The notes below the pieces were generated by a model. That model was not told the DNA's origin. It ran no database searches and worked only from the letters and a program-made list of their open reading frames with translations. From Clostridia bacterium (GTDB lineage Bacteria; Bacillota; Clostridia; Christensenellales; UBA1242), in assembly GCA_050872805.1 (NCBI GenBank), contig JBNMHN010000001.1, positions 1 to 58,371 on the forward strand: a DNA stretch of 58,371 nucleotides, given 5' to 3'. This document shows positions 3,340-57,524 of this stretch, in pieces. The translations under genes were made by a program, and so were the position numbers. Every line of letters starts with the position of its first letter. Within the stretch, counting starts at the first letter, position 1.

Positions 3340-3706
3340 AAACAACCTTTCCGCTGCCGCATAGAATGCCCACAAGCGCACCGTCCACAAAAATCACTTA
3401 AAGTAGGAACAATACTCACAGCGGCGGGGCTATCCCCGCAAAAGGTACATAACCAATTAACTATGTACCCAAACCTGTTTAATGCCACTCACCAAACCTG
3501 TAGCGGCGGGGCTATCGCACCCGAGAATAAAAGTGCATAGAACGCACAAAAATGCGCCGTCCTCAAAAATCACTTGCATGTAGGGACAGTACCCACAGTG
3601 GCGGGGCTTTCCCTACTCACCAAGCACATAGAATGCATTCAAGTTTGCCGCCCACGCATGTCACTGACACGTAGGGACAGTACCTGTGGCTGCGCGCCAT
3701 CGCGCC
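3340..3706 (+). repeat. intergenic mosaic repeat locus R1 (three tandem L units plus P and C modules)
   Basis: Three copies of CATAGAAnGC...GCnCCGTCCnC...GTAGGnACAnTAC...GC-hairpin, at approx 3351-3439, 3526-3615 and 3620-3706. Palindrome GGTACATAACCAATTAACTATGTACC at approx 3444-3470. CACTCACCAAACCTGTAGC at 3487-3505. Confidence 0.85.
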
Positions 3707-4425
3707 TAGAAGAGGAGAATTGAACTGATAAGACCGCCAATGAAAGTAATGCCAAAACACATATACGCAAAGCAGCCGCACGGATGAGGCGCTTTCTTGC
3801 AGCACGGCTTCATAAACGCACACTTACCCCAGTCAATGCACCCAAAATCAAGCCCGTTACCCGCCTTTAACTCATTGCACGGGTCGCAGCGGTTCGCCTC
3901 CGCCTCCGCCTTTGCTTCCTCCTCAGAGTTCTTTTGTAGTTTGAACTTGAACTTGTTAAGGTACGCCTTTTTCATATCATACTTGCCGCCATTGTCCTGC
4001 GTCTTTGCGTCCTGCGAACTCCCGCTCACCGACCCGCCGTTTGAGGAAACGCCGCTCACACTTCCGCCACTCGCACCACTTGCGCCAGCAGCGCCACCAG
4101 CCGCATTTGCCTTTCCACCAGCAGCACCCTTTGCACCGCCCGTGCGGCTGCGCGATGCATTGTCGCGCTTCATCTTGTTGACTTCAGCCTTACCATTGCC
4201 CTTGCCGCCACCTTTGCCAAGCGACTTGCCCGCCTCAGACTTGCCGCTGCCCTGCGCCGTACCGCGCAAAGCATCGCGCGCACTCGACGCCGCGTTCATA
4301 GCCGAACCCGCCGATTCTTTCATTTGCTCAGCAGCGCCCCCCACGCTTCCAGCGCTAGGAGAATCGTCGTCTTCCGCATCATATCGCAATGTATCAAAAT
4401 TGTTATACTTATAATCCATTTTCAA
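3706..4425 (-). CDS. Gly/Ala/Ser-rich low-complexity protein with a Cys-rich hydrophobic C-terminus
   Basis: 239-aa ORF, 5 nt downstream of the 4431-5267 gene. Long GGxG/SGxS tracts. The last approx 60 aa contain 11 Cys and a TM-like tail. Confidence 0.6.
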   Translation of the reverse strand: MKMDYKYNNFDTLRYDAEDDDSPSAGSVGGAAEQMKESAGSAMNAASSARDALRGTAQGSGKSEAGKSLGKGGGKGNGKAEVNKMKRDNASRSRTGGAKGAAGGKANAAGGAAGASGASGGSVSGVSSNGGSVSGSSQDAKTQDNGGKYDMKKAYLNKFKFKLQKNSEEEAKAEAEANRCDPCNELKAGNGLDFGCIDWGKCAFMKPCCKKAPHPCGCFAYMCFGITFIGGLISSILLF

Positions 4426-8035: not shown

Positions 8036-8395
8036 GGTGGCGTACGCCACTGGTGCAGGTTTGGTGAGTGGCACAATACAAACGGGAGTACATAGTCAAC
8101 TAACTATGTACCTTCGTTTAAAGTAAGCCCCGCGGCTGCAAGTACTGTCACTACAAGCAAGTTGCTTTTGTTGACGGCGCATTTTTCTACTTTCTATTCA
8201 GTCTGTCTCTCGGTGCGACGGCGCACGGCTGCAGGTTTGGCGAGAGACACTATACGATGTTTGGGTACATAGTTAATAAACTTGGTGACTTCTTTCGCGG
8301 CGTATCACTGCCGCAGGTTTGGGCGGCATAGGCCGCGACTGCAGGTTTTGTTATGGGCGAAATTGCAATTTGACCGCGCCAGCACAAACAATCAC
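8036..8395 (-). repeat. intergenic mosaic repeat locus R2 (mostly inverted orientation)
   Basis: Hairpins GTGGCGTACGCCAC, GTGCGACGGCGCAC and GCGGCATAGGCCGC, each next to GCAGGTTTGG (the reverse of CCAAACCTGC). Palindrome GTACATAGTCAACTAACTATGTAC. One L unit at approx 8125-8215. TTTGACCGCGCCAGC at approx 8369-8383. Confidence 0.85.
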
Positions 8396-8508: not shown

Positions 8509-9834
<1,326 letters not shown>

Positions 9835-9961
9835 ATCGTCTCCTATCACATATAATGTATCTATTTCATTTTATTACACCCGCCCGCGCTTTGTTACTGT
9901 TCCACCATTTTCCCGTACCTCCCATCATAAACTCAATATTTAGTACCTACACTATAAACCA

Positions 9962-17597: not shown

Positions 17598-17606
17598 TCA
17601 TTCTCC

Positions 17607-17760
17607 CTGCGGGGATAGCCCCGCGGCTGGTGCGATAGCGCACGGCTGTGATTGCTGTCTGTACGCGTCATCTACTTTCGTGGACGGCGTACTTTCCCTT
17701 TTTTTATATACTTTAATCCTCGGTGCGAAAGCGCACTGCTGTGGTTACTATCATTACGCT
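17607..17760 (-). repeat. intergenic mosaic repeat locus R3
   Basis: GCGGGGATAGCCCCGC, then GTGCGATAGCGCAC, then a degenerate L unit (GGACGGCG...), then GTGCGAAAGCGCAC. The first hairpin abuts the SD of the SDR gene. Confidence 0.8.
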
Positions 17761-17864
17761 TGATTAAATTATTCTTTTAATTAAAGGCAAATACCTTGCA
17801 ATTTTATAATGTCGTCTTATAAATAACGCTTTTGCAGAAATGCAAAAGCGTTGTGAATGGTACA

Positions 17865-18419
17865 CTATGCGCGTGAAAAATATTTTCCGTCGCAAGTTGT
17901 GACGATAATTTTTTCGCCCTCTTTGATAAAGTCAGGAACTCTCAATTTGAGCCCTGTTTCGACAACTGCTTCTTTTGTAGGTTTTGTTGCAGTTGATGAA
18001 AGCGTTGATGGGTCGACGCTGACGATTGTCATTTCCAATTTCTCAGGAATGATGATGCCAAGCAATTCGCCATTGAATGTGACGATGTCGACACTATTGT
18101 TTTCAATCAAGAAATCCTTGTTGTCTGCAATTCTTTCAGCAGGGATTTCAGACTGCTCAAATGTTTCGTTGTCCATAAAATAGTATGTTTCGCCGTCGTT
18201 GTAAAGATATTGTGCGTTGCGGCGTGAAATGTGCGCTTCCTCACATTTGTAGTTTGTGTTAAAGTTGCGGTCGATTGTGACGCCTGTTTTAACCTTTTTA
18301 ATTCTTGTGCTCATAAATGCAGCACCTTTGCCGGGTTTTACGTGCAAAAAGTCGATGACTTGATAAAGGTCGCCATCAATCAAAACGTGCATACCCTTTT
18401 TTACTTCTGATATTTCCAT
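17865..18419 (-). CDS. efp: elongation factor P
   Basis: Full-length EF-P pattern including the KPGKG loop. Confidence 0.92.
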   Translation of the reverse strand: MEISEVKKGMHVLIDGDLYQVIDFLHVKPGKGAAFMSTRIKKVKTGVTIDRNFNTNYKCEEAHISRRNAQYLYNDGETYYFMDNETFEQSEIPAERIADNKDFLIENNSVDIVTFNGELLGIIIPEKLEMTIVSVDPSTLSSTATKPTKEAVVETGLKLRVPDFIKEGEKIIVTTCDGKYFSRA

Positions 18420-21102: not shown

Positions 21103-21282
21103 TATATGTACCTAATTTAATATAGTGTCACTCACTAAACCCACAGCAGTGGGGCTATCCCTAACGAAAATTGGAGCAAGTAGAAAGTACATAGGTACGC
21201 CGTCCACAATCGCTACTTGAGCGTAGGAACAGTACCTGCACCAGTGGCGTTTGCCACCAGCAGCGGGGCTATACCCGCCCAC
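21103..21282 (+). repeat. intergenic mosaic repeat locus R4
   Basis: CACTCACTAAACCCACAGC + GTGGGGCTATCCC. One L unit with GTAGGAACAGTACCTGCACC. Hairpins GTGGCGTTTGCCAC and GCGGGGCTATACCCGC, ending 9 nt before the SD of the next gene. Confidence 0.85.
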
Positions 21283-34000: not shown

Positions 34001-36381
34001 TTCATACTACTAGACAAATCAGGTAGCGGTCTATCGTATGTTGCAGTCACTTCACTTGGCCCATCAGTCCCGCCTTGTTGGTCGAAGCTTACTGTATATG
34101 TATTCGCCGTCCAATGCGCATAAAGTGTCATTGAAGAGTTAATTGGAGTTTCTCGATCGATTTGGCTCCCGCCACTCAACGCATCCCACCAACCATTGAA
34201 TGCATAGCCAGTTCTCTTGACAACCGGAAAATTATCTATCGTTTTGCCATACGTGATTTCTTTATCATCACCACCAGTAATACTGCCCCCGTTAGGGTCA
34301 AATTTTATTGTTGCTACCTTCCGCGTCAAGCCCGCATATAGGTTGATTTCAGTTCTTGTGTCTGTTATAATCGTGTCTTTGCCTATCTCTGCGCCTTGCC
34401 CTTTTGTCACAGTAACGTCATTTATTGTTTCGGTCGATTTATCATTATAAAACTTTCCATCCCAATCATAATATTGTGGCACGTGATTTGCTATTTGCTC
34501 TGTTGTCGGCCAACTTTTATCCCCCTCAACGACTTCACTATATTTTTTTGCAAACTTTGAATAGTATGTTGAGACTACTCCATCATTGACATAGAAGTTT
34601 ATTTTGACTTTTTGCGCTTCCCAGTGCGCATATAGGGTTATGTCCGATGTTATTGGTACAAGTCCATTACCATTCGAATCAATATATTGCGTTCCATCAC
34701 TGCTTCCTGTATAATAACCTAAAAATATATACCCACCTCTTGTAGGGATGTCAATTTTCCCAACCTTTTGGTCTTGTATCACAGTTAACGAACTAGTTCC
34801 ACCATTTGTATAATTTTTATCTAATGTAACAGTGTACTTTGCTAATGTTGTCTTTTCTTCATAATAGTTGTAAGGTGCAGCCGATTTCTCAGTCCACGCA
34901 GTTGTCCCTTTGGGGGTAATATACAAAGTTGTAGTTGTACGAATTTCCCCTTCATCACTACTTTTGCTTGTGCCGTCAGTCCAATTTGAAGAATATATGT
35001 TTACTTGCCCCGGTTTAAATGTGTCTTTCGAAGTACAAAAATCCTTATCATTTTCAATAGAGTTACATACAAGTCCATTATGGTTACCAAAAAGATAAGG
35101 CCCTGTTTCAGTACTACGATAAGCACATGGCCTATTTTGGCTTTCTTCATTCAAGCCGATATAAATGCATGCCGTAGATTTATGATCCTCTCTATATCCA
35201 TACCCTAAAATTGAGCCTTTACTTGTAGCGGTCATTGTACCTCGTGCATAAGACTCATAAATGTGGATGTGCGCATCTCTATCATCAAGCCACGCATTTC
35301 CCGCATTTGCAAATGCATAACCTACAATACCACCAGCAGCTACACCATTAGTCGCTTTTATATCTGCTACACTCGCGCATTGTGAAACATATGTGTTACC
35401 TGAAGTATTCCTACTCCCCGTACTATATGTATCAGCAAGAGCGTAACCGGCAATTCCACCTACATTTTTATTACCTGTAATGTTGCCCGTATTCCAGCAA
35501 TATGTCAAACTTGCACTCTTAGAACCCCTGCCTTTGATCTCCCCTACAATTCCACCTACATTGTCACTAGTATTAGAAACATCATTGCTATTTGAATGTT
35601 TTTTAGTTTCACCATTCCCCACACTATCTGTCACACCCCCCTTCGTCATCACGCCACGCTTTTGCGCTTGAGAGAACCATGTGTCGATGCTTGAGAGTGT
35701 GCTCATTGAGACATCGGTCAATTCGTTGGTTGGGAAGCCGATTTTTTCAATGTCGTTTGAGCCGTTTGTTGAGTATGAAATGTTTGTGTTTTCGGCATAG
35801 CCGACGATACCGCCGACTGCACCTTCGCCACTACGAGAAGAAACATTGACATACGAGTTGCGCATATCAACTTTAGTGATAAGAGATTCCTTTACAACAC
35901 CAAAAAGGCCATAGTAGTCGTATCTATCGCCTGTCATTGTCATAAAGTATATTGCTTTTTGAGCGCCGTCAAACGTACCCATAAACGGGTGCGCCATTGT
36001 ACCGATTGGCGTCCACTCGCGCCCTGCGAGATTGAGTTCGCTTGTCAGCGTGAAGTACATTCCCTCATAGGTTGTACCCGCATTGACGTTGCACGCGAGT
36101 TGCGCCAAGTCGGTTGCCGTCGCGATTTTGAACGCGTCCGTCTCCGTACCACTGCCCGCCCACGTCTCCGTGCCGAACACTTGCGGTGTGAGTCCGTCCG
36201 TCCATTCGGCGACCGCCGCGACTTTTTTGCTGACAAACGATTGCACAATCGGTGCCGCGATAATGGCTGTCATTGCCAAAATTGCGAAGAAAAGAGCAAG
36301 CAAAAAGTTAAATCTTCTCTTTTGTCTCCTCTCTCCAACCTCAACCAGCACCGACCCTGTCAGCGTTCTCAAATTATCCAT
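22015..36381 (-). CDS. giant (4,788 aa) tail-anchored surface protein: N-terminal TM, GLUG-motif region, approx 50 Listeria-Bacteroides (Flg_new) repeats, C-terminal TM
   Basis: Uninterrupted 14.4-kb frame. ATG at 36381 preceded by AGAGGAGAAAG. VGGIVGY / VGGIAGY GLUG-like motifs. Repeats follow the pattern YTVTFDANGG...GYTFxGW...LYAxW. C-terminus WPLVIAGGILALLLIVFFIIMIV + KINEKRSSRDK. Confidence 0.9.
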   Translation of the reverse strand: MDNLRTLTGSVLVEVGERRQKRRFNFLLALFFAILAMTAIIAAPIVQSFVSKKVAAVAEWTDGLTPQVFGTETWAGSGTETDAFKIATATDLAQLACNVNAGTTYEGMYFTLTSELNLAGREWTPIGTMAHPFMGTFDGAQKAIYFMTMTGDRYDYYGLFGVVKESLITKVDMRNSYVNVSSRSGEGAVGGIVGYAENTNISYSTNGSNDIEKIGFPTNELTDVSMSTLSSIDTWFSQAQKRGVMTKGGVTDSVGNGETKKHSNSNDVSNTSDNVGGIVGEIKGRGSKSASLTYCWNTGNITGNKNVGGIAGYALADTYSTGSRNTSGNTYVSQCASVADIKATNGVAAGGIVGYAFANAGNAWLDDRDAHIHIYESYARGTMTATSKGSILGYGYREDHKSTACIYIGLNEESQNRPCAYRSTETGPYLFGNHNGLVCNSIENDKDFCTSKDTFKPGQVNIYSSNWTDGTSKSSDEGEIRTTTTLYITPKGTTAWTEKSAAPYNYYEEKTTLAKYTVTLDKNYTNGGTSSLTVIQDQKVGKIDIPTRGGYIFLGYYTGSSDGTQYIDSNGNGLVPITSDITLYAHWEAQKVKINFYVNDGVVSTYYSKFAKKYSEVVEGDKSWPTTEQIANHVPQYYDWDGKFYNDKSTETINDVTVTKGQGAEIGKDTIITDTRTEINLYAGLTRKVATIKFDPNGGSITGGDDKEITYGKTIDNFPVVKRTGYAFNGWWDALSGGSQIDRETPINSSMTLYAHWTANTYTVSFDQQGGTDGPSEVTATYDRPLPDLSSSMKPQKEYYVFQGYFTEINGKGTQYYANNLISTENTWQTAGNGTLYAHYGPATVTINYELNGGYLPSGEPSSLSAAYGNAVRLPTPIRTGYTFSHWSKVNNTQDGNKISLTTSVNSSTFSLYSQGNGSYETIIYAQWNVKSLKLTLSASDADSNSKNWANINGWNKNGRIADKTVTYGTLIGTMPTPTKTGSTFQGWFIENSAKQYTKDNVVDFDVDITLYARWTSNEYTLRIDPMGGTYSGDKTLITGIYGRTIDLGTVTRTGYDHTGWEISGSGSVTKTQFTFGAGSATITAKFTPKRYTMTFVLNDSSESWGVIPSGVTASGGNYVKTVTYDAKIGDMPSATKTGYRFLGWYESASSEKVWQTSTKYDEDNSKTLYAKFSATPFVLTVDRDNGQGAYTVPGTTGEKLALPSGLTKEGYSFVNWEKTTGAAGTLSGFTFTFGDSDATVVARWNANGYTVAYNANGGVGSMGASSYTYGSHGTLTLNAFTRTGWTFNGWNTKADGKGSGFVDGADVYNLTSKNGETLTLYAQWKAITYTVTFSAGAGTIVTTAGFTGRVNESISIVTYNYGQTLGVLPNATQTGYRFDGWYYQNTYNTLVKTSDKVTESRTLYAKFTANTYTLTLSASNATINAANGWNISADKHSATKTMTYDAPFGVLPTASLDGYNFRGWYDGTGENSTSYAESSVYKFSGAKTLYARFEVESVMVFFDAMGGKAQTSQRIIPYNSQIGALPTATFAGYTLAGWFYASDKQASASDIITETVTLTAKWTANKYRLTFNANGGIFNAGDTYTKDVTYNEPIGDFPNVTKSGARLVGWFESKEGTGAQYVPSTIVRFTKDVTIYAHYENETYLVIFNANGGSSKVASKEYEYGEQYDDLPTASKVGFKFLGWAKDEDSSLYIEKTWTVTNTHTLYAQYQANTYYIVFDKNSADATGTEMSKMTVKYGQSVKLSKNTYQRSGFDFRGWTPNSNGTGDIYTDEQIVYNLTTVDAGEFRLYAKWVGNTYTVTIDILNTNVVSSNNYQNSGSYALKKTFSYGEKIGAFPTLTKRGYNLTGFRDEKGNNVTVDTQVLDDMRLYPQFSAIQVTYTFDANGGVFKDSGSGTYENGYVKIRGSYDSTIGLLPTVERIGYDFVYYVKDDGSNAPVFAGSTFNSEVDIRVIALWDIIDYVVTFDAGKGTIDKFGDYEGGSSTTNITAHFNEPYGTLPSATLRGFTFAGWYTEQNMKGTKIETNTPFEFTKNITLYAGWSTSKYIATISANGGYFGSPTTTTATLQGDFGKAYEIPIPTRTGYTFTAFKHMSNDDGVASDSTGKWMFTFGLGNAELSAQWTPNTYTLTFDYVQEGVTNVGGGDLERTRTVTYDKEYGSLPIPQTSGKTFAGWKRADGTIVSGSAIVKETSDFTLTAHWTQNGYSLVINPNGGVYSESSTTTIIEGKALNNTIPIATPTREGYTFASWTETFVGKDGSTSYRGLSGASYKFGEGNGTLTANWNAISYQIKFEGGVGSVGTMENQTIFYDTSVALTMNTFTKAGYDFKNWRCDELGTEFGNTETVKNLTSTANKVLTFVAQWSVKTYELTIDPNGGSYNGKNSAAKISEEYGKTTKIYASSFERRGYNFVGLEENDNLTGNVADGYTYTFNAYNDTITAIWEVRVINVTLVIPMGATWTDAAKTKYNVGADNNGHITATFGEMYKNIPVADDIVYAGHDFSGFMYDGNVRIDSTSIVNYEDDITLVANYGDNIYVFTIVLNDGKIDGSTATQNYNGQINDEVTFDAPTKTGYLLTEWKRTGDGELTEENGKFKFKFAADNCRIEAQWAPIKYTVTFVKNDTDAEGSMNDIQCEYDSGKRLPSVGFTKTGYTFTQWTLDAAGNGNGYGDGAYFQNLTTENGNTVKLYAQWKVTDYIIVLDANKGTLTQSSITRSYGEAYGDIPEAIREGYTLAGWYTLADGGKKINADDVVTGAITLYAHWTANTYTITFNAGSGRIAAGDDGYTGAVGGVEGEITVTFGGYYEKMPIAVHDTKVFAGWFVSERADSLQIEKTTIVTVANNQTLYAHWVEDQYTVSFDPNGGTVSEHSRTVSHGEPYGVLPVPTKTGYHFDGWFFEEKNIQIADSSIVNYKGDHTLCAHWTALKFTVSFDYDGGEYVETEGYEGDGTKKGVTYDQTFGVLPMAAKTGMRFLGWFDADDKLIDESKLVKILEDITVKAKYENILYTLTIELDGGKYGDLEQVQSFTGIYEQTIEILAPTKTGYNFASYENRLGIGSVEKVGDIYHFTFGADNSTLYAIWKAMDIRVTFHAQDGELFGSNTAISNDKKTGMRQYKFGDKFNVVSAMPNARLEGYRFLGWFTEPDGGFQMTDEMEITIPTNFDLYAQYEPILYILTIDPQGGVFNNSQHTYDFKDKKRGDEVTFNTPTREGYRFLRFIMTGEGTLTAQDEQLSSYKFVFGAGNATLTAVWENEKYIVTFDYNGADGGDTTETLEVTYDQMYDALPVPTKTGYDFVGWFTTADDEGMKIDNTTTVKIARNHTLYAHWELHKYKLQVILSGGSIDGAASTDVEFEAYFNEIVDFSIPTRYGYLFKEFEKVGDKGTLDIREGEGKVYFTFGDDNCKLVAIWENKEIIVNFDYDNATSGNEIASKTVKFDEAYGELPTPAKAGYNFVGWFDSRDDENRVQIIPSVLVKNAETHTLFAVFEEITTSLTIVLNGGDLVLEENPINKKFGETFTFGEPTKTGYDFTGYTSTVDGALKNNGDGTWTYTFGLSNAVVSAEWAAQSVDVTFKLSSDAIEDGVEIDWTDLTHSDDVMKVTYGEKYGTLPKVSRYGWEFNGWFTEENGQGERIIDTSIVTNPEDHTLYAYFEQYEFTLKIDLNGGTAEGQQLTIIGHAKDVINVIAPTKIGYTFAGFTIVSGDITQSGGETLAEKLTFTFKESDAIILANYTANTYTLTFNANGTAENPASIPTSTEWIVGEGSNFATKIVTFGDRINAMPTPIRDGYTFIGWTISGTEGDKDVYTPLTRVEFAQDLTLNATWSADKFALTIDLDGGKLLDQDSSVITFTASNGQSYDITSTPTKTGYKFERFEIEYAVEGQGRFEKTGNTWKFTFGSGNATITAIWTPIEIVITLDANGAQFDESSLNGWTLAADKNSATKTFNYKDLLGKIENSDGTTSIGALPQVSLEGSKFTGWFVDETQYSETSPIEWLVNTTLTASFAMNNYLLVINTNGGTYSDDEYNNKVGVFNISKVYGTIYNVANPSKTGYKFTGWTGSGVGTFDNTLGAFTFGAGTYTLVAEYEPIKYTIKFDANGGTGTMDAQEFTYDISDVLNENKFTYAGYTFKEWNTAADGTGEIFANMGMVLNETDVEGDEITLYAIWNSAWITMYFDANNGTADPVGMKVEHGKPFGALPRVERKGYNFGGWYESIVNDVPQGEPIEATTICKYTESRTFVAFWTIASYEITLPSGYPQDSMTLNVLDTYKGTLSEDGSKATILYNHDFAFEITILEAYSQSNIRVYATIKTTQVKKEILPINGAYMLTQIADDMVISVENLNKNTYKVVFDAREGLFGNSQYTTVTVEWGGKITRPTRPTRLHYDFIGWFASISSLAEFDFATYEVYADLTLYAKYEKANYKITFYVDDEVFWTDSVQYESVVTKPNDPIKEGYNFVGWRLVNGAMYSFSSQVTGELNLYAEFDKNTYTVRFYNGDRLLDTVEIKYGETVKVNFPVGITGYDLEGWYADAAFTTLFDFDQIITSDTNIYGKYVLQQFKVDFYVNGELQATQQVGYNHWAKIPTGIIVEVGHHIANWYTDVDLTQLFDFGKSITSDLVLFGKIEKDDIVITFVANEQKILRYVKYGDSLAPSEIPVIPARIGYDKVAPYWEDADLTNITSPLTINAVYTINKYTVTIIMPDGSHLYKEVEYGKTLTDLPKIKTKFGDKVVYDQDLSNITSNLVVHIEVQNYIFWPLVIAGGILALLLIVFFIIMIVKINEKRSSRDKIKELIDTNGR

Positions 36382-36431
36382 ATCTCTTTCTCCTCTAGTA
36401 GTCAATTTTATGTTTTGTTTTTTACTCTTTA

Positions 36432-36461
36432 ATTGTACTAAAATTCGACAAATAAAGTCAA
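36432..36461 (-). promoter_or_regulatory. candidate promoter TTGACT-18-TACAAT for the giant gene
   Basis: Minus strand: TTGACT (36461-36456), TACAAT (36437-36432). Lies between the repeat array and the RBS. Confidence 0.4.
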
Positions 36462-36469
36462 ACACTTTT

Positions 36470-36985
36470 GCCCCATTTTTACAAAATATTTTTGCGGCGG
36501 GGATAGCCCCGCGGCTGCAGATACTGGCGGGGATAGCCCCGCTGCTGCAGGTACTGTCCCTACGCGCCATTTGCTTTCGTGGACGGCATAGTGCATTCCA
36601 TTCTTTTCACTTTTTGTTCTCGTGTGGGAATATCCCCGCCGCTGGTGCGATAGCGCACTGCTACTGGTACTGTCCCTACACACCAGCCACTTTCATAGAC
36701 GGCGAACGCGACTGCTTTCTATGCCGTACAGTTCTCGAGTGGGGATAGCCCCGCGGCTGCAAATACTGTCCCTACTCTCAACCGACTTTCGCGGACGGCA
36801 AACGCAACTGCTTTCTATGCCGTACAGTTCTCGGGTGGGGATAGCCCCGCCGCTGGTGCGATAGCGCACTGCTACAGATGCTTTCCCTACGCGTCATTTG
36901 CTTTCGTGGACGGCGTAGCACATTTCATCCTATCCGCTTCAGTTCTCGGGTGCTTTCGCACCCGCGCCAGCAATCAAGCAAAAAA
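36470..36985 (-). repeat. intergenic mosaic repeat locus R5: tandem array of L units (alternating approx 96 and approx 114 bp)
   Basis: GGGGATAGCCCCGC-type hairpins start at approx 36497, 36527, 36624, 36739, 36835 and 36948. Each full unit carries GTACTGTCCCTAC, GGACGGC and GCTTTCTATG. Every second unit has an extra GTGCGATAGCGCAC. Confidence 0.9.
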
Positions 36986-37017: not shown

Positions 37018-37065
37018 TTGATTTTCTCCAGTAACTCGACTATAATAAGAGTTAGTGGAGAAAAT
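37018..37065 (+). promoter_or_regulatory. abiE promoter TTGATT-17-TATAAT bracketed by inverted repeat ATTTTCTCCA / TGGAGAAAAT
   Basis: TTGATT at 37018-37023 and TATAAT at 37041-37046. Inverted-repeat arms at 37021-37030 and 37056-37065 (25-bp spacer). The distal arm contains the SD. Confidence 0.65.
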
Positions 37066-37647
37066 ATGATAAAAACAACAAAGATTTTGTTGGGCGAACT
37101 GTCCAATTATGCTCGTCCATATGACAAGATAAGGCGACTTGTAGCAGAAAAAAAACTTATTCCAATTATCAAGGGGTTGTACGAAACGGATGCAACCGTT
37201 TCGGGGCATTATCTTGCAGCGAGCATTTGTGGCCCCTCCTATTTGTCCTTTGAGTTCGCTTTGTCTTACTATGGACTGATTCCAGAAGCGGTTTACACAA
37301 TCACGTCTGCGACATTCAAAAAACATAAACGCAAAGAATACGATACACCATTTGGCTTTTTTACCTATCAAGATGTGCCAAAAAGTGCGTACCCTTGGGG
37401 GATTAAAATCGTCGATGAAAATGGTTACGCCTTTCAAATAGCGTCCCCTGAAAAAGCGCTTTGCGACAAACTTTATGCTTTGCACCCATTGCAAAATTTA
37501 GGCCAGTTGCAAACGCTGCTTTTTGACGATTTGCGAATTGACGAAAACGGATTTTGTAAACTAAACAAGGACGACATTGATTTTCTTGCCGATAAGTACA
37601 AAAGCAAGAATGTCACACTGCTTGCAAAATTTATGAGGAGAACTTGA
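37066..37647 (+). CDS. abiEi: type IV toxin-antitoxin / abortive infection AbiEi-family antitoxin (transcriptional regulator)
   Basis: Position immediately upstream of an AbiEii gene (1-nt gap). N-terminal wHTH-like region and a SFEFALSYYGLIPE-type segment. ATG at 37066 after GGAG. Confidence 0.7.
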   Translation: MIKTTKILLGELSNYARPYDKIRRLVAEKKLIPIIKGLYETDATVSGHYLAASICGPSYLSFEFALSYYGLIPEAVYTITSATFKKHKRKEYDTPFGFFTYQDVPKSAYPWGIKIVDENGYAFQIASPEKALCDKLYALHPLQNLGQLQTLLFDDLRIDENGFCKLNKDDIDFLADKYKSKNVTLLAKFMRRT

Positions 37648-37648
37648 T

Positions 37649-38515
37649 ATGAATCCTATTATTGATGAAATGCTGAAAAATTATAATGCGAACAATCTTA
37701 ATGACAAAAAAAATGCAATCAAAGAGATAATGCAGGAAATCGTTTTGTGCGGACTTAGCCGCGCGGGCTTTTTTGACAAGGCAGTTTTTTATGGCGGCAC
37801 GGCTTTGCGCATATTCTATGGGCTGGATAGATTTTCTGAAGATTTAGATTTTTCTCTCAGGACTCAAGACCCTAGTTTTAATCTTGAAAAGTTTTTCCCC
37901 ATTTTGGAGAGAGAGGTAAATTCGCTAGGCTTGAATGTTAAAATTGAAAACAAAGAAAAAACTTTTGATTCAGCAATCAAGTCCGCCTTTTTAAAAGGCA
38001 ATACAAAGGAACACCTTTTGATGTTTTACTCAGATAATTCGCTTGTCAAGGGGATAAATCCTGAGGAAGTCATAAAAATTAAATTTGAGATAGACACCAA
38101 TCCGCCCCCTTTTGCAACGTTTGAAACTATGTATAGGTTGCAGCCAAGCCCCTACGAAATTAGTTTGTACGATTTACCTTCGTTGTTTGCTGGCAAAATT
38201 AGCGCCGTGCTTTGCAGAGCGTGGAAAAATCGTATCAAGGGGAGAGATTTGTATGATTACATTTTTTACCTTCAAAAAAATGCGGCTTTCAATTTAAAGC
38301 ACCTGCAAGCAAGGTTGGTTCAAGCAGGATTTATCGAAGATGGGCAAACGATAACACTTGACGATGTAAAAGCGCTTTTAAACAAAAGGTTTGACAGCAT
38401 TGATTATGAGGACGCAAAAAAAGATGTAATTCCATTTATCAAAGACCCCCTCGCTTTAAATGTATGGAGTAAAGATTTTTTCAAGGCAATTACACAAAAC
38501 CTAAAAGCGGAATAA
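37649..38515 (+). CDS. abiEii: AbiEii/AbiGii-family nucleotidyltransferase toxin (DUF1814)
   Basis: FYGGTALRIFYGLDRFSEDLDFS NTase motif. 288 aa. Confidence 0.85.
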   Translation: MNPIIDEMLKNYNANNLNDKKNAIKEIMQEIVLCGLSRAGFFDKAVFYGGTALRIFYGLDRFSEDLDFSLRTQDPSFNLEKFFPILEREVNSLGLNVKIENKEKTFDSAIKSAFLKGNTKEHLLMFYSDNSLVKGINPEEVIKIKFEIDTNPPPFATFETMYRLQPSPYEISLYDLPSLFAGKISAVLCRAWKNRIKGRDLYDYIFYLQKNAAFNLKHLQARLVQAGFIEDGQTITLDDVKALLNKRFDSIDYEDAKKDVIPFIKDPLALNVWSKDFFKAITQNLKAE

Positions 38516-42986: not shown

Positions 42987-45215
42987 ATGAATAAAATCAG
43001 TTATTTTATTGCGACGATTGTTTTGTCTTTGTGCCTCATCGGTTTTAGCGCGTGCGGCGGCAGCAACAAGGGCAAAAACATTCAGGGCGCGGAGGCGGTT
43101 GGCCTCAAGACGTATTATCACGTCAGCGAAACCATTGATTTTTCGACGATTAAAATCAAAGTCACTTATGACGACAAGTCGACGACCGAACTAACAAAAG
43201 GCGAAGTCGACATTGACGTTGCAAACGCAAAGGCGGACACACAGTTCGTTTTAGGAACGAGCGGACTTTCAGCACAGCAAGGCGGAAATCTTACTGCTGG
43301 CGAATACAAAATCACGTGCCAATTCGTTGGCGACGAGACAAACACTAAACACGAACTTATGACAATAAATGTATCGACGGATATGTCACTCATTTACGAT
43401 TTACAACTTTTTGAAGCACCACAATTCATTGATACATTCAATGAAAACAACAAGGCGTCCGCAACGGACGAAAGCGCGTTTTACAAGACTACTGACTACT
43501 ATGTTGGAGACGACAACGCGTTTGTGCTTAACCCAGTTCTCAAACTAATGAGCAAAAAAGACGCAAGCATTGCGACGGTTGCCGATTTCAAGGCAAATGT
43601 GAAAGTCGAAATCAAGGGTGCGGACGCGTTTAGCGAAGTCACTGACGACACTTACTTTGAATATGCGGACTTCAAGTTTGATTTCAAGGAAAGCGCAATC
43701 GGTCACAAATTTAGAATCACGATGACTCCAGCCGAATTTGAGGCTGACTTTGCGGGCAACCCAATTCAACCTGTTGTGTTCACGGTTGTTGTTGCGGATG
43801 GCTACAACGTTTATGACGCTATCGACCTTGGTAGAATCAACATTTTCTCAGATAATGTAAAAAATCAAATTACGGCGGACGGCAATTCGTGGAGTCGCAA
43901 CGACCATTCTTGGGGACGCACATTTTACACAAATACACAAGAAAATACGCGTCAAAATATAAAATACAGCGACATTTGGTTACCTTTCCTTGCTAGCAAA
44001 GGCGAAACGGATTTGAATCCAGTCAACGGCGTTTTCCTTCACAGCAACATCAGTGTGACACCTAACGACATTCCTAGCGAATACTTCATTGGTGAAGATG
44101 AAGCAAAGGCAAATGGCGCAAGCAAATCGGCAGGTTCTTTGCGTGACTGCGCTGAATTTTACATCCATTATCTTGAAAATGATTTCACTTTCAACGGAAA
44201 TATGTTCAAAATTGACTTCAGTGCCATTCCTTGGTGCCGCAACAATAAAGACTACAAACCGTTCTATTTCCCTGACGAAGGTGCGGACACCCACGCAACA
44301 CCGGGTCACGCAACCGCCTTTGTTATGGCAAACAAGTCGGATGAAAGCAACAACACAAAGGCTTACTTTATCAATGTTGAGGCAATTGGCAACACGGCAA
44401 ACGCGTCACTCAGCGCAACTAAAGGTGAGGACCTTTTGGCGGCTGGCGGACTCATTATGATAAAGTCAATCACATCAACAACTGTTGCTGAAAACAATAT
44501 CGCAAAAGGTTGGATGATTGCGTGGTTTGCTGAAATGACCGACAATATCAACTCTCTTGAACTGAACTACATCAAAACATACGACTGCTTCAACAGCGGA
44601 ATTTACAACTACGGCAGCGAAAAGAACACGCTTGCTAACTCCGAGTTCAAGCGTTTCGGCGGCCCTGTAATTCTTGCGACAAGCATTGCAACAAGTTCGG
44701 GCGAAAAACGCGATGGCGTTGGTTTTGAAATCGACAAAACAACGACAAAACTTGAAAGTTTTGTTGTAGGCACGGAAGCGTGGTTCACAATCGTGGGCGC
44801 ATCCTCTATCGTAACACCGTTCTTTGGGCTCGACCAATTGTTCAACGCGTACGGCAACACGGTTTTGCAAACACAAAATGGACAAAATTATATGAATATG
44901 ATTGCAATTTGCCTTGACTCCGATACAGTTACGTCGAACGACCCAACATATTCAACACTCAAGTATGGCGACAACACATACGCGCTTGACACGGAAAAAA
45001 CCAACCCTATCAATCAAATTTGGTCAAAAGGAAAAACCGCTGTCTTTATCTCAAGCGGCGGACAAATCGCATATATGACAAGCGAAACATCTATGGCATT
45101 TGCGGACGGCGCCTCAACGTCCTTTGCAGGTGACAACCTATTCATTGCTTACCCAATGAACAGCAAAGCAACTGCAGGTGTCCTCGTCAACCTCTACCCT
45201 TTCACTGCCGCTTAA
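42987..45215 (+). CDS. large hypothetical lipoprotein
   Basis: Lipobox GFSAC. RBS AAGGAG. 742 aa. No family recognised. Confidence 0.7.
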   Translation: MNKISYFIATIVLSLCLIGFSACGGSNKGKNIQGAEAVGLKTYYHVSETIDFSTIKIKVTYDDKSTTELTKGEVDIDVANAKADTQFVLGTSGLSAQQGGNLTAGEYKITCQFVGDETNTKHELMTINVSTDMSLIYDLQLFEAPQFIDTFNENNKASATDESAFYKTTDYYVGDDNAFVLNPVLKLMSKKDASIATVADFKANVKVEIKGADAFSEVTDDTYFEYADFKFDFKESAIGHKFRITMTPAEFEADFAGNPIQPVVFTVVVADGYNVYDAIDLGRINIFSDNVKNQITADGNSWSRNDHSWGRTFYTNTQENTRQNIKYSDIWLPFLASKGETDLNPVNGVFLHSNISVTPNDIPSEYFIGEDEAKANGASKSAGSLRDCAEFYIHYLENDFTFNGNMFKIDFSAIPWCRNNKDYKPFYFPDEGADTHATPGHATAFVMANKSDESNNTKAYFINVEAIGNTANASLSATKGEDLLAAGGLIMIKSITSTTVAENNIAKGWMIAWFAEMTDNINSLELNYIKTYDCFNSGIYNYGSEKNTLANSEFKRFGGPVILATSIATSSGEKRDGVGFEIDKTTTKLESFVVGTEAWFTIVGASSIVTPFFGLDQLFNAYGNTVLQTQNGQNYMNMIAICLDSDTVTSNDPTYSTLKYGDNTYALDTEKTNPINQIWSKGKTAVFISSGGQIAYMTSETSMAFADGASTSFAGDNLFIAYPMNSKATAGVLVNLYPFTAA

Positions 45216-45282
45216 TGCAAAATCACTTGACTAAATATTGATAATCAAATTATTATGACTATACAATGAATATTTAATTATT

Positions 45283-45377
45283 AAAAAACTCTTTGATTAT
45301 CAAAAAAACTCTTTGATTATCAAAAAAACTCTTTGAGTGAAGAATAAATAAATTCTCCATTCTAAAGAGTTTTTTTA
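45283..45377 (+). repeat. 2.7 copies of a 20-bp direct repeat (CAAAAAAACTCTTTGATTAT). The last copy forms the 5' arm of a terminator hairpin.
   Basis: Copies at approx 45283-45300, 45301-45320 and 45321-45336. The 3' arm TCTAAAGAGTTTTTTT is at 45361-45376. Confidence 0.7.
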
Positions 45378-45485
45378 TGGTTATATAACAAATGTTGTGG
45401 TGATATAAAAATTTATAGGAAAAGCACTCAGTATGAAACCAAGTACCTAATCCGTTTCCAACGTGATAACTATAATAGCAACTTT

Positions 45486-45698
45486 ACAACGCACATAGTC
45501 AATTGACTATGTACCAACAACATACAGCGTCACTCACCAAACCTGCAGCAGCGGGGCTTTCCCCGCCCAAACCTGCACAAGTGGCGTTTGCCACTATCCC
45601 CACCGAGAACACGTGCTTATAGAAAGCACATAAGTGCGCCGCTCACTGACGCAACTTGCTTGTAGGGACAGTACCTGCAGCAGCGAGGCTACGCCCGC
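45486..45698 (+). repeat. intergenic mosaic repeat locus R6
   Basis: Palindrome CACATAGTCAATTGACTATGTAC. CACTCACCAAACCTGCAGC-GCGGGGCTTTCCCCGC-CCAAACCTGCAC-GTGGCGTTTGCCAC. One L unit ends in GCGAGGCTACGCCCGC, which contains the stop of the next gene. Confidence 0.85.
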
Positions 45699-46234
45699 TC
45701 GTCGTCATCGTCGTCAAAATCGTCGTCCTCGTCGTCTTCTTCATCTTCATCGTCGTCATCAAAATCGTCGTCAAAGTCCTCGTCCGTCATATCTTGCGCA
45801 AACTCGTCCTTTGCAAGTTCGTCAATTTCCGCAAAGTTCAAATCTGAATCAAGTGCAATGTCGTCAAGGTCAGTCGATATGCCTGCGTCGTACCCGTCGT
45901 CAATGCTGCCGATTGACGCCATTGGCCCCAAGTTTTCCTCTTCCTCGTTGTCGTCCTCAATGCCGTCATCATTGATATAATCGTGCCATTCAGTGAGGTC
46001 GATGTCGTCCACATCTGCGCCCTCCGCTTCTTTCTCGGCAGCACAACTAGCGCACATAATTTCGTCCTCAGTAATATAGTTCGTCTTGCAAATAGGGCAC
46101 AATTCAAGGTCAATGTCACACGCAAGGTCGTCGTGCCTTGCGTTCATTTCGTTGATGCAAACACTACAATAGTCCTCCCCTTTCTTTATGTAGTTGAGTT
46201 CACATCTTGGGCATCTTTTATATATTGTTTTCAT
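45689..46234 (-). CDS. double zinc-ribbon protein with hyper-acidic Asp/Glu C-terminal half
   Basis: CPRC...CSVC and CPIC...CASC pairs, then approx 110 aa dominated by D/E. ATG at 46234 preceded by AGGAG. Confidence 0.7.
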   Translation of the reverse strand: MKTIYKRCPRCELNYIKKGEDYCSVCINEMNARHDDLACDIDLELCPICKTNYITEDEIMCASCAAEKEAEGADVDDIDLTEWHDYINDDGIEDDNEEEENLGPMASIGSIDDGYDAGISTDLDDIALDSDLNFAEIDELAKDEFAQDMTDEDFDDDFDDDDEDEEDDEDDDFDDDDDERA

Positions 46235-46351
46235 AATTATTTTTTCTCCTAACATTTTTTTAAAATGGTTTAGTATATTTTAATGATTTTTAATACAAAA
46301 GTCTACTATTTTTGCAATGTTTTTAACAAAAAATCACGAATTTGGTAAAAA

Positions 46352-48270: not shown

Positions 48271-48344
48271 TTCCTCCTAAATGCTTGACTATTCTCCTAT
48301 TTTTGCATATAATTTAGGAGAATAATGCGAGGAATTAGGAGAAT
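48271..48344 (+). promoter_or_regulatory. fic promoter TTGACT-17-TATAAT embedded in nested inverted repeats of TTCTCCTAA
   Basis: TTGACT at 48285-48290 and TATAAT at 48308-48313. ATTCTCCTA (48291-48299) pairs with TAGGAGAAT (48315-48323). Further copies at 48271-48281 and 48335-48344. Confidence 0.6.
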
Positions 48345-49389
48345 GAAAACTTTTAATTATACAAATTTAAAGAACACTAAGTGGGACAATGAGATTGTTG
48401 CATATATTGCACAAATTCACGAACACAAGGCAAAGCAAGAATTATATTTAAAGCAAAAGCCACAAGAACTACAAAAACTTGTCGACATTGCAAAGGTGCA
48501 AAGCACGCTAAGTTCTAATGCTATTGAGGGCATCAGGACAACAAATACGCGGCTAAAACAACTTGTCAATGAAAAGACAACGCCCAAAAATAGAGATGAA
48601 GAAGAAATTGCGGGCTACCGCGATGTTTTGGAAACAATTCACGCAAGTTTTGAGTATATACCCATTACGCCAAATTATATTTTGCAACTTCATAAAATGC
48701 TATATAGCCATTCTTCAAAAACAATTGGTGGAACTTTTAAAAATGTGCAAAACTATATAAGCGGCACCGATGCAAACGGTCAAACTTATACAATTTTCAC
48801 GCCCCTACCGCCATTTGAAACGCCTATTGCTATTGAAAACATTTGCAATGAGTTTAACAAAACAATCGCGGAAAATGAAGTTGACCCGCTCATTTTGATA
48901 CCGATTTTCATACACGACTTTTTGTGTATTCACCCATTTTTAGACGGCAATGGTAGAATGAGCCGCTTACTAACAACGCTGCTGCTTTATAGGTGCGGCT
49001 ATATGGTTGGAAAATATATTTCACTTGAAGCCAAAATCGCGAAGAACAAGAGTCTATACTATGACGCGCTCAAGCAATCGCAAGAGAATTGGCACATTGG
49101 CAAAGACAACCCCGAAAGTTTTATCAAATATTTGCTAGGAACAATTATATCTGCTTATAGAGATTTTGAAGAAAGGGTTGATATTGTATCATCAAAATCT
49201 ACCGCACTCGAGATGGTTAGAAAAGCAGTAACCACAATTATCGGTAAATTTAACAAGTCATCAATTATTGACCTGTGCCCTAGTTTGAGTGTTAAATCTA
49301 TTGAAAGTTCACTCAAAAAACTTGTAGATGAAGACTTTATAGAAAAACAAGGCTCAGGCAAAAACACCTACTATATTAGAAAAAATTAA
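48325..49389 (+). CDS. Fic family protein (class II, N-terminal inhibitory helix, C-terminal wHTH)
   Basis: Active-site HPFLDGNGRMSR. Inhibitory motif SNAIEG, i.e. (S/T)xxxE(G/N). An alternative in-frame start exists at 48343. Confidence 0.88.
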   Translation: MRGIRRMKTFNYTNLKNTKWDNEIVAYIAQIHEHKAKQELYLKQKPQELQKLVDIAKVQSTLSSNAIEGIRTTNTRLKQLVNEKTTPKNRDEEEIAGYRDVLETIHASFEYIPITPNYILQLHKMLYSHSSKTIGGTFKNVQNYISGTDANGQTYTIFTPLPPFETPIAIENICNEFNKTIAENEVDPLILIPIFIHDFLCIHPFLDGNGRMSRLLTTLLLYRCGYMVGKYISLEAKIAKNKSLYYDALKQSQENWHIGKDNPESFIKYLLGTIISAYRDFEERVDIVSSKSTALEMVRKAVTTIIGKFNKSSIIDLCPSLSVKSIESSLKKLVDEDFIEKQGSGKNTYYIRKN

Positions 49390-52245: not shown

Positions 52246-52352
52246 TTTTTCTTTTATTATTATATCAATTCTCCTCCCTCTTTGTCAATTAGTTACTTTC
52301 TATTTTTTCTCATTGTCGGTGCGATATAATAAATTGTCCTTTTTATCATTGT

Positions 52353-52651
52353 AAGCCACTCACCCTCTTGTCTTTTTGACCAAAGGCGGAGACGTCTGCC
52401 CTCGCCGCCGCGGAGAGTGCCAGACGGCACAGGTGTGGTTGTTGGTTGGTGCGTATACGTTGTTGTGTGGCGGCAACCAAACCTGCAGTCAAGGCGAGCC
52501 TTGCCGAAAGGGTAACCCGATACATTATGGGTTACATAACCGCCTTGACCGCGCTAGCATATAACTATCATACAAAAAGAACGGCAGTGCGCCGTCCTCA
52601 AAAGTAAATTAAACGTACAAACAGTACTCACAGTCGCGGGGCTTTCCCCGC
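52353..52651 (+). repeat. intergenic mosaic repeat locus R7
   Basis: GCCACTCACCC. CCAAACCTGCAGT + CAAGGCGAGCCTTG. GGTAACCCGATACATTATGGGTTAC...TTGACCGCGCTAGC. One L unit ends in GCGGGGCTTTCCCCGC, 20 nt from the next stop codon. Confidence 0.8.
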
Positions 52652-52671
52652 AAATTGTCATATTGTTAATT

Positions 52672-54003
52672 TCATTTGACAGTGCTGGCGCGCTCAGCGT
52701 CAATGCGAGCAAGGCGCGCTTTTGTTTTTTTAATTTTTTTGTTACCGAACAAAAAGTCGTAGGCAAGCACAAGCAGCCCTTGTATGAGATAAATGTAATA
52801 CTGGAATATGCGGTATATGAGCATCGCCCAAACGACCGTTCCCGACGTCAGGCTGAAGTACGCAAACATCGTGACATACGAAATTTCCGCCACGCCCGCC
52901 GCTCCCGGCCACGGAATGTACGACAGCACCGCATCAATGAGCGTGCACCATATGAACACCGCCGAGTATGTCGCCCAGTCAAAGTGCCCGTTGTTGAACA
53001 TACAAACAACGCACGCGGGTATCATAAATTTGACGACAATGTTCAAAAACGACATCACAAGCATCGTAATCATAACGAAAAAGTTTGACATAAAGTAGCG
53101 GAACGTCTTTTGATACTCCGAAACAAAACGCATAACTTTGCGGAAAAGCGCCGTGTAGTCCTTGATAATGTGCATTTTGTGCAGTAGTTTCAAAATCCAA
53201 ATCGTCAGCGTCGGCCCCACTTTTTTACTGACCGACAGCAGGAACACAAACGCCATAATCGTCGTGTTCAAAACCACGCCAACGACTGCCGCCGTGAACA
53301 CAGTCGGGTCAAGCCCGCCCGCAATTTTTTTGCTGAAAATCAGCACGCTTATCGACACCAAAACCGCGACAATTTGGTTGAAAATATAAACCGCAAACGG
53401 AATCGACGACGCCGTACTGCCCTTGATTCCGCGTTTTGCCATATAGTAAATTTGGAAAGGTTGCCCGCCCGTCGCAAGCGGCGTTATGTTGTCATAGTAG
53501 CGCCCGAGCGCCATCGTCTTGTAACTTAGAAAAGGACGCGAATGTTTTGTAGAGCGCAAAATGAGCAGCCACCAACGGAATGTGTCCGTCGCCATAAGCA
53601 GCGCAAAACACCCGAGCGCCCCAAGCAAGTACCAAAAGTTTGCCACCGCGAACATATCACCAAAGGACGCCATACTGTCGTCCTTGAGGCTCTGCGTGAT
53701 GATGATGACCGCAATAATAGCAATGTTGACAATAAAGAAAATCAGGCTGAGAATCTTTGATTTTTTGCTCTTTTGTTTTTTAGTTTTTTCTTCCGCCTCA
53801 ATGACAGCCTGTTCCGCAATCTGCTCTTGCGTAGCAATGTCTTCAGGCTCTTTGTAAACCGTCAGCATCTCATCAAGCGGTTTAGTCTTGCCCTTGCAAA
53901 CAAAAAGCGCGCCGTGCTTACACTTTAAATGCACATTTTTTTTGATGACGCCCTTTTGAACGCGCAAGGTCTCCTTTTCAATATTTTTGTCGTTTTCTGC
54001 CAT
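52672..54003 (-). CDS. lysylphosphatidylglycerol-synthase-TM / flippase-like (UPF0104) membrane protein
   Basis: Multi-TM with a GRYYDNITPLATGGQPFQIYY-type motif. ATG at 54003. The upstream ORF-track extension is unsupported. Confidence 0.65.
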   Translation of the reverse strand: MAENDKNIEKETLRVQKGVIKKNVHLKCKHGALFVCKGKTKPLDEMLTVYKEPEDIATQEQIAEQAVIEAEEKTKKQKSKKSKILSLIFFIVNIAIIAVIIITQSLKDDSMASFGDMFAVANFWYLLGALGCFALLMATDTFRWWLLILRSTKHSRPFLSYKTMALGRYYDNITPLATGGQPFQIYYMAKRGIKGSTASSIPFAVYIFNQIVAVLVSISVLIFSKKIAGGLDPTVFTAAVVGVVLNTTIMAFVFLLSVSKKVGPTLTIWILKLLHKMHIIKDYTALFRKVMRFVSEYQKTFRYFMSNFFVMITMLVMSFLNIVVKFMIPACVVCMFNNGHFDWATYSAVFIWCTLIDAVLSYIPWPGAAGVAEISYVTMFAYFSLTSGTVVWAMLIYRIFQYYIYLIQGLLVLAYDFLFGNKKIKKTKARLARIDAERASTVK

Positions 54004-54162: not shown

Positions 54163-54570
54163 ACCTTGCGAGAGCGGCAACCTGTTACATTATGGGTTAC
54201 CCCAAAAATTTGACCGCGCCAGCCTACAAATAAAGAAAACTATTGTAAAAGTGGTAAGTCACCCACCCCCATCGTCATTGCGAGGCAGTCAATGGAATAT
54301 TGTGCCACTACTTGCGCTTATCGCTCCAACTGACACATTAGGTACGTCTGCCTATGCGAACCCGCCCATCCCTTGACAACGTGGCAATCTCCCGGAAGGG
54401 CAACCCGATACATTATGAGCGAGTTTACACATTGACCGCGCTAGCAAACATAAAAGGTACATAGCAAATTAACTATGTACCTACTTTCATATAAAGTCAC
54501 TCACCAAACCTGCAGCAGCGGCCTATGCCGCCCAAACCTGCAGCCGTGCGCTTTCGCACCACATCGTCCA
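54163..54570 (+). repeat. intergenic mosaic repeat locus R8
   Basis: Two T modules (GCAACCTGTTACATTATGGGTTAC..TTTGACCGCGCCAGC and GCAACCCGATACATTATGAG..ATTGACCGCGCTAGC). Palindrome GGTACATAGCAAATTAACTATGTACC. CACTCACCAAACCTGCAGC-GCGGCCTATGCCGC-CCAAACCTGCAGC-GTGCGCTTTCGCAC. Confidence 0.85.
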
Positions 54571-57388: not shown

Positions 57389-57443
57389 TTTTCCTCTTCC
57401 TTATATTATTTTTCTTTTTACCGCATTAAATCGCGAACTAGCC

Positions 57444-57524
57444 TGCATAAGCAGTACAACTGCACGCCGCCCACGATAGTTTGTTGCTTGTAGGGAAAGT
57501 ACCTGCACCTGTGGCGTCTACCAC
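57444..57524 (+). repeat. intergenic mosaic repeat locus R9 (single L unit between pheS and pheT)
   Basis: GCATAAGCAG...CGCCGCCCACGATAG...GTAGGGAAAGTACCTGCACC-GTGGCGTCTACCAC. The hairpin abuts the pheS stop codon. Confidence 0.8.

Follow-up and report, generated by a model that had tools for sequence, protein, structure and literature searches.

Stem-loop cassettes in head-to-tail intergenic repeats of an uncultured gut Clostridia lineage: a likely REP-like family

The DNA analysed here, a complete contig of 58,371 nucleotides that we call the window, is bacterial chromosome with a G+C content of ∼42%, and its genes include those for EF-P, PheS/PheT, TilS, an ECF sigma/anti-sigma pair and a 4851-aa repeat protein. 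Small hairpins, 18 of them perfect and about 10 imperfect, sit in nine intergenic clusters of mosaic repeats within this window, and any genome-wide copy number is an extrapolation from these ∼58 kb. All nine clusters lie between genes or overlap at most the final few codons of one, occupying the space from a stop codon to the following ribosome-binding site. Inside every cluster the modules run in one direction, with their units head-to-tail. Orthologous regions of relatives (designated L078, L086/87 and L088-90) were obtained through protein look-ups.

The clusters are assembled from a small repertoire of modules. The C unit consists of CACTCACCAAACCTGCAGC plus a hairpin and is found one or two per occurrence. 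The palindrome module, of 24-26 nt, reads (G)GTACATAG-N8-CTATGTAC(C). Long units of ∼95 nt (CGAGAAC..ATAGAA..GCCGTCCAC.AAAG..GTAGGGACAGTACCTGCAGC) carry one or two hairpins, and their bodies diverge, with a mean column identity of 72% (alignment A1). A further module of ∼190 nt ends in CCAAACCTGCAGT-CAAGG-CGAG-CCTTG. Its copies (52350-52545 (+) in the window, 462-641 in L073 and 13466-13568 in L086) have hairpins of their own, such as GTGCC-AGAC-GGCAC and CAAGG-CGAG-CCTTG, and share the CCAAACCTGCAG motif; a hairpin in L083 is like that of the CAAGG module, and the similarity does not extend beyond the hairpin. The principal features are:

3340..3707 (+): cluster 1, with three long units, a palindrome and a C-type unit; it includes a chimeric hairpin GCGGGG-CTAT-CGCAC (∼3503-3518)
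3692-3705: terminal hairpin of cluster 1, GCGCG-CCAT-CGCGC; the orthologous site in L086 has GTGGC-GTTT-GCCAC
8037..8350 (-): cluster 2, upstream of the ECF sigma-factor gene, with C-type units, one long unit and a palindrome
8037-8050: hairpin of cluster 2, GTGGC-GTAC-GCCAC; GTGCG-CCGT-CGCAC in L088
17611..17736 (-): cluster 3, in the EF-P to SDR spacer, a long unit whose GTGCG/CGCAC and GCGGGG/CCCCGC stems adjoin the downstream ribosome-binding site
21104..21282 (+): cluster 4, from the Met gamma-lyase stop codon to the YcxB ribosome-binding site
36497..36948 (-): cluster 5, four tandem long units with a period of 96-116 nt and extra hairpins, directly upstream of the 4851-aa ORF
45491..45514 (no strand assigned): palindrome module of 24 nt, GCACATAG-N8-CTATGTAC, ahead of the C-type units
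3445-3468, 8088-8111 and 54457-54480: other copies of the palindrome module
45531..45566 (+): C-type unit 1, leader CACTCACCAAACCTGCAGCA and then hairpin GCGGGG-CTTT-CCCCGC (45551-45566)
45567..45594 (+): C-type unit 2, head-to-tail with unit 1, leader CCAAACCTGCACAA and hairpin GTGGC-GTTT-GCCAC (45581-45594)
45604..45697 (+): long unit of ∼95 nt, CGAGAAC..ATAGAA..GCCG.TCAC..GTAGGGACAGTACCTGCAGCA plus a degenerate hairpin GCGAGG-CTAC-GCCCGC
52350..52651 (+): cluster 7, a ∼190-nt module followed by a long unit with GCGGGG-CTTT-CCCCGC
54498..54559 (+): doubled C-type unit, with GCGGC-CTAT-GCCGC (54518-54531) and GTGCG-CTTT-CGCAC (54546-54559)
57433..57524 (+): cluster 9, in the pheS-pheT spacer, a long unit antisense to both genes with GTGGC-GTCT-ACCAC, which has one C.A mismatch

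The trinucleotide CTA across the stem-loop junction of the 45604..45697 unit is the TAG stop (- strand) of ORF 45689..46255(-). This ORF encodes 188 aa with a very acidic, Asp/Glu-rich C-terminal tail and no Pfam match, and its last codons and stop lie inside the repeat hairpin. Downstream of ORF 42987..45215, at 45290-45385 (+), AAAAACTCTTTGA occurs as three direct copies spaced 20 nt apart. The last copy doubles as the left arm of an AT-rich, terminator-like inverted repeat (AAAAACTCTTTGA...TCTAAAGAGTTTTTTT), for which the terminator scan gives no call.

Several genes of the window have peculiarities of their own. The giant 4851-aa ORF (22015-36570 (-)) contains many internal repeats, and its L086 orthologue has Flg_new domains. 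Divergent from it, at 37018-38515 (+), an AbiEii toxin gene (Pfam E = 7.5e-33) follows a 209-aa ORF without Pfam match, and the two probably form a type IV toxin-antitoxin pair. A 446-aa ORF at 8509-9849 (-) encodes collagen Gly-X-Y repeats (Pfam Collagen, E = 2.4e-27), reflected in direct repeats with a 9-nt period in its DNA (9024-9723). The MBG-domain protein encoded at 12127-14412 (-) is shorter here, at 761 aa, than in any close relative (1089-1098 aa), which may reflect truncation of the protein or a deletion or frameshift in the contig. A Fic/DOC-domain gene at 48325-49389 (+) is missing from the otherwise syntenic L078, where a 22-bp junction marks the insertion/deletion difference.

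At both loci singled out by the original prediction, and in seven other intergenic clusters, a G+C stem of 5-6 bp closed by a 4-nt loop stands at a fixed offset behind an ACCTGCA-type leader. Positions 45531-45594 read CACTCACCAAACCTGCAGC-A-GCGGGG CTTT CCCCGC and then CCAAACCTGCAC-AA-GTGGC GTTT GCCAC, while 54498-54559 read ...CTGCAGC-A-GCGGC CTAT GCCGC and then CCAAACCTGCAGC-C-GTGCG CTTT CGCAC; these are the sequences first transcribed, save for one spacer base per unit that had been dropped. All six of the stems listed earlier (GCGGGG, GCGGC, GTGGC, GTGCG, GCGCG and CAAGG) are present in the window, always with a loop of 4 nt. The leader CCAAACCTGCA, with at most one mismatch, occurs in 10 copies in the window where 1.29 are expected, a number reached in 0 of 100 shuffles.

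The minimal unit can be described as an unpaired tag CTG-YAG-C (mostly GCAG), 2 nt, the 5-6 bp G+C stem and the 4-nt loop. In a set of 45 perfect hairpins, positions -6 to -3 read GCAG in 21, GCAC in 12, ACAG in 5, GTAG in 3 and another sequence in 4. GYAG thus fits the tag of 24 of the 45, and the GTGGC subfamily has GCAC. In the predicted fold of 45531-45594 (ViennaRNA) both hairpins form, with z = -2.4 as RNA and -3.0 as DNA. The leaders of the neighbouring units are predicted to pair together as well (45544-45577 (+)), enclosing the first hairpin between them, because CTGCAG is self-complementary. Known restriction enzymes recognize ACCTGC and CTGCAG.

Pairing was quantified on 54 units from the window and its relatives that were selected by leader only (CCAAACCTGCA or GGACAGTACCTGCA), with chance anchors removed. 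A hairpin of 5-6 bp, perfectly paired and placed at the fixed offset, was found in 36 of them (67%), as against 0.22 in composition shuffles. When the right arms were re-dealt among the 54 units, perfect hairpins averaged 8 and never exceeded 17 in 5000 trials. The units were then placed in an N-padded alignment (A2), whose structure-pair statistics were compared with 500 shuffles. Paired cells amounted to 87.3%, against 70.5% after shuffling (0/500). Both sides had changed at five of the six stem pairs, with 40 doubly changed cells against 15.6 shuffled, and the covariation score was 0.379 against 0.147 (0/500), slid controls giving 0.094 or less. Statistically supported covariation, on which the original prediction had staked its case, is therefore present at three stem positions: position 2 (columns 12/25; U-A 22, C-G 14), position 4 (columns 14/23; G-C 35, C-G 10) and position 5 (columns 15/22; G-C 28, C-G 13). 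Linking the five fully compensated haplotypes requires at least four paired replacements, with position 2 changed twice. Two of the replacement kinds are G-C to C-G flips, which pass through no wobble intermediate.

The variation is organized in blocks. The 54-unit set contains seven perfect stem types, each with its own spacers and loops. The GTGGC stem always has the spacer CC[AT] or CAA and the loop GT[TAC][TC]; the GCGGGG, GCGGC and GTGCG stems have the spacer GC[ACG] or GTC and the loop CT[AT]T or CCGT. GTGGC, GTGCG and GCGGGG are each found behind both CCAAACCTGCA and GGACAGTACCTGCA leaders. In addition, left and right arms of different types have been joined at the common CTAT loop into chimeras with broken pairing (window ∼3503-3518, L024 3848 and L086 22837/22743).

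Two orthologous sites caught the replacement of a whole hairpin. In cluster 1, window and L086 differ at 12 of 19 cassette positions and at 13 of 134 flanking positions (p = 6e-7). At the sigma-upstream site GTGGC-GTAC-GCCAC, common to the window and L086, gives way to GTGCG-CCGT-CGCAC in L088, with mismatches at 10 of 18 cassette and 12 of 153 flanking positions (p = 3.5e-6). At both sites the flanks are ∼90-92% identical, the replacement cassettes are perfectly paired, and the boundaries fall immediately after ACCTG on the left and at the hairpin foot on the right. Variation therefore moves by cassette exchange and not by stepwise compensation. Since cassettes are copied or exchanged whole and also form chimeras, the many covarying cells derive from few events plus copying. 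The earlier statement that the stems change in a paired manner thus stands in that self-complementarity is kept across variants; what it took for compensatory variation is a few discrete cassettes exchanged as blocks. More generally, the two replacements suggest cassette exchange, rather than stepwise compensatory mutation, as the source of the paired stem variation seen in repeats of this kind.

Carriers of the family are few. A 17-mer scan of a 596-Gb genome collection returned 69 stretches, approximately the chance number, of which five were true relatives; they belong to only two MAGs and comprise four CALDMJ01 contigs (uncultured Clostridia) and one Hadza-gut MAG contig. A metagenome scan gave one genuine contig match, and two viral-contig scans yielded chance matches only and no family copy. 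In relatives at 58-74% protein identity the repeats are absent from the same spacers. With so few carriers and this absence, the family is confined to a narrow clade of uncultured gut Clostridia. Samples in which the clade occurs include ERZ27318536, ERZ28634729, ERZ808245/CALDMJ01, CAKVOD01 and SRR30769985. An exact-protein look-up for EF-P found no record, and a literature search for the motif strings returned unrelated primer matches only.

Within this clade the clusters turn over and differ between orthologous spacers. The cluster at 52270-52686 (cluster 7) is missing from L078, where the orthologous spacer measures 44 bp. The Met gamma-lyase/YcxB spacer is empty in L086 (23 bp), ∼195 bp long in the window and ∼600 bp in L088, where it holds three long units; module number also varies between orthologous clusters. 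We infer mobility solely from such presence/absence differences among relatives, and the same comparisons revealed no target-site duplication or signature. Some copies exceed neutral sites by far in conservation: the 184 nt upstream of the sigma gene are 94.6% identical between the window and L086, whereas third codon positions of the adjacent gene are 63% identical, which points to a host function there and not to selfish DNA.

The family is thus a small set of self-complementary stem-loop cassettes behind different leaders, whose clusters have been gained, lost, expanded and contracted between close relatives. On balance we favour, with a little better than even confidence, the view that the hairpins form the core of a REP-like family of palindromic repeats peculiar to this lineage, embedded in head-to-tail mosaic intergenic elements comparable to BIME, NIME and BOX. 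The units would multiply and reshuffle at the DNA level, likely by recombination, gene conversion or template switching between the common ACCTG leaders, and possibly also through a hairpin-recognizing single-strand DNA enzyme of the REP-mobilizing kind. What such a process would require is that the hairpins form in single-stranded DNA, with folding in read-through transcripts as an incidental effect, and every surviving cassette would be palindromic for that reason. Effects on the host would be secondary and specific to the copy; candidates are gene insulation, stem-loops placed by ribosome-binding sites and an element-borne promoter. Scanning ∼40 of the larger window ORFs with Pfam found no transposase or RAYT-like gene. 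A tblastn search for Y1 transposases and RAYT over 197 kb of lineage DNA gave no match either, a weak negative because the query protein sequences may be erroneous.

An alternative that we consider unlikely, and that fares best among the competing accounts, dispenses with selection. It is well established that mutation can correct quasi-palindromes in a templated manner; intrastrand template switching could create the stems and keep them perfect, whole-unit copying could spread them, and the hairpins would be neutral by-products. Such an origin would account for the flips from G-C to C-G, for which no single-step intermediate is viable, and it agrees with the sharp-edged replacement of whole cassettes, with the tolerance of chimeras and with the presence of only seven stem types in many copies each. 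It is less easily reconciled with the EF-P/SDR spacer, whose diverged orthologues in three genomes retain intact stems behind a decayed leader. This pattern argues for constraint or repeated conversion, and it also contradicts the original view that the flanking motifs stay constant while the stems vary. Furthermore, two-thirds of the units are perfect despite the divergence of the long-unit bodies, and neutral correction explains how variants originate but not why the same leader and offset precede every one of them.

A structured RNA is a lesser possibility again. Here the units would be small RNAs or cis-acting leaders or trailers, expressed from a palindrome-borne promoter and with their stems kept by selection on the RNA fold; the original prediction had proposed selection on a folded RNA or a single-stranded-DNA hairpin. 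The covariation is real, the hairpins adjoin ribosome-binding sites, conservation of the sigma-upstream copy far exceeds that of synonymous sites, and a 221-nt composite element folds with z = -4.5. None of this singles out RNA. Units point either way with respect to the genes (∼5 sense, 4 antisense and 2 ambiguous contexts), and some lie outside transcription units: certain clusters are found beyond a terminator-like hairpin, and one is upstream of a promoter-like site, TTGTAT-17-TACAAT, judged by eye. Near-perfect units showed no wobble excess, G.T mismatches numbering 4 against 7 A.C, a count that is uninformative on which strand folds; in the frequent CCCCAC variant the mismatch on the unit strand is C.A. 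RNAalifold on 24 copies of the ∼95-nt long unit found no structure other than the terminal hairpin, and a scan of all its column pairs offered one extra candidate helix, GTAGG/CCTGC, which lies in mostly conserved columns and is unconvincing. Rfam gave no match over the window at gathering thresholds and only chance-level miRNA matches on two clusters in E-value mode, and a tRNA/tmRNA search found none. The persistence of chimeric hairpins with broken pairing likewise counts against selection on the fold.

Just upstream of CACTCACC, most C-type units have a TTAACT/TTGACT box and a TATAGT-like box 14-16 nt apart, which favours transcription of the units; however, the spacing is mostly 15 nt and promoter scans of the palindrome module stayed at chance level, with a single copy called (TTAACT-16-TATAGT). 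Nor do the hairpins end transcripts in a recognizable way: the sequence after them is CCAAACC, CGAGAAC or a ribosome-binding site, no T run follows, and no terminator-like site was called at the hairpins in the two regions scanned (45250-45750 and 17560-17900). The notion that the hairpins are unrelated small intrinsic terminators, intergenic by chance, would suit G+C-rich stem-loops after genes, but it is contradicted by these missing T tracts and terminator calls, by the common leader at a fixed offset and by tandem units in both orientations that also occur upstream of genes, and we regard it as highly improbable.

A specific version of the DNA-level process is, in our judgement, unlikely. 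A putative dedicated single-strand DNA enzyme would cleave behind ACCTG and again at the foot of the hairpin, thereby giving Firmicutes a REP-like system that exchanges hairpins in place and builds head-to-tail arrays, and its candidate substrate would be single-stranded ACCTGCAGCA plus the hairpin. The sharp cassette edges at exactly these two points are what cleavage by an IS200/IS605-like enzyme would leave. Under the same proposal the palindrome-plus-TATAGT module may be a portable promoter, which could transcribe arrays into neighbouring genes.

The favoured reading, a REP-like mosaic repeat, can be set against the systems already described. BIMEs of enterobacteria and NIMEs of Neisseria are mosaics of palindromic units plus other motifs, and in BIMEs the REP orientation alternates with defined linkers. 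The elements here are likewise made of short modules in variable number and order, are intergenic, and differ in module content between orthologous loci. Unlike BIMEs they have one orientation per cluster, and the sequences are unrelated. The BOX elements of Streptococcus pneumoniae (boxA-boxB(n)-boxC) provide a Firmicute precedent, being modular, head-to-tail and intergenic, with a variable number of internal modules and predicted stem-loops. By their description, however, BOX modules measure 45-60 nt as against 28-30 nt for the hairpin units here, and the sequences appear to differ; to our knowledge no stem cassettes have been described for BOX.

The likeness to IS200/IS605 lies in the subterminal hairpins of those elements: a hairpin with a short 5' single-stranded motif would here too be the recognition unit in single-stranded DNA. 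In contrast to IS200/IS605, no adjacent transposase and no left-end/right-end pair was found, and the units are far more numerous and in tandem. A CRISPR array was rejected: units of 28-30 nt abut without spacers, and no Cas family was found in the ∼40 ORFs scanned. Integron attC sites were rejected on the impression gained from reading the sequence.

The closest resemblance is to the GTAG-1/2 REPs (Pseudomonas-type; Stenotrophomonas SMAGs), which have an unpaired 4-nt tag, an unpaired dinucleotide, a G+C stem of 5-6 bp and a short loop. REPs are short (20-40 bp) G+C-rich palindromic stem-loops of high copy number, and the units here consist of a stem-loop of 14-16 nt plus 6 nt of tag and spacer. 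Like GTAG REPs they are extragenic and clustered, fall into subfamilies distinguished by complementary changes in the stem, and differ in abundance from one close relative to the next (PMC3733652; PMC2817692). Most REP families have subfamilies with alternative complementary stem residues, and their tags may degenerate to GYAG, GTRG and others (PMC3733652, Di Nocera et al.). In the present family the tag is mostly GCAG/GCAC and not GTAG, and the conserved leader of 11-20 nt is far longer than a REP tag. Inverted dimers dominate in the described REP families and head-to-tail dimers are rare (PMC3733652). Here, in contrast to the HH/TT dimers and REPINs formed by REPs, all units of a cluster are head-to-tail and show no inverted pairing, and they are embedded in larger mosaic modules. 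REPs are mobilized by RAYT (TnpA-REP) transposases, whose cognate gene lies somewhere in the genome between flanking REPs; here no RAYT was found in the scanned window ORFs or in the 197 kb.

The host also sets the family apart, being a narrow clade of uncultured gut Clostridia. Firmicutes and Clostridia go unmentioned in two REP surveys (PMC3733652; PMC2817692, Nunvar et al.), and a literature search for RAYT in Firmicutes returned nothing relevant. What is new here are the cassette-replacement events and the Clostridia host; paired stem variation is an already known property of REPs and not evidence of a new RNA.

REP-type repeats have been well studied in Proteobacteria, and the range over which they are known would be widened by a dense family of this type in uncultured gut Clostridia. 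The most useful lead is the pair of whole-hairpin replacements, which bears on covariation-based calls of structured RNAs in repeat-rich genomes. In practical terms, these repeats fragment MAG assemblies and could be used as strain markers.
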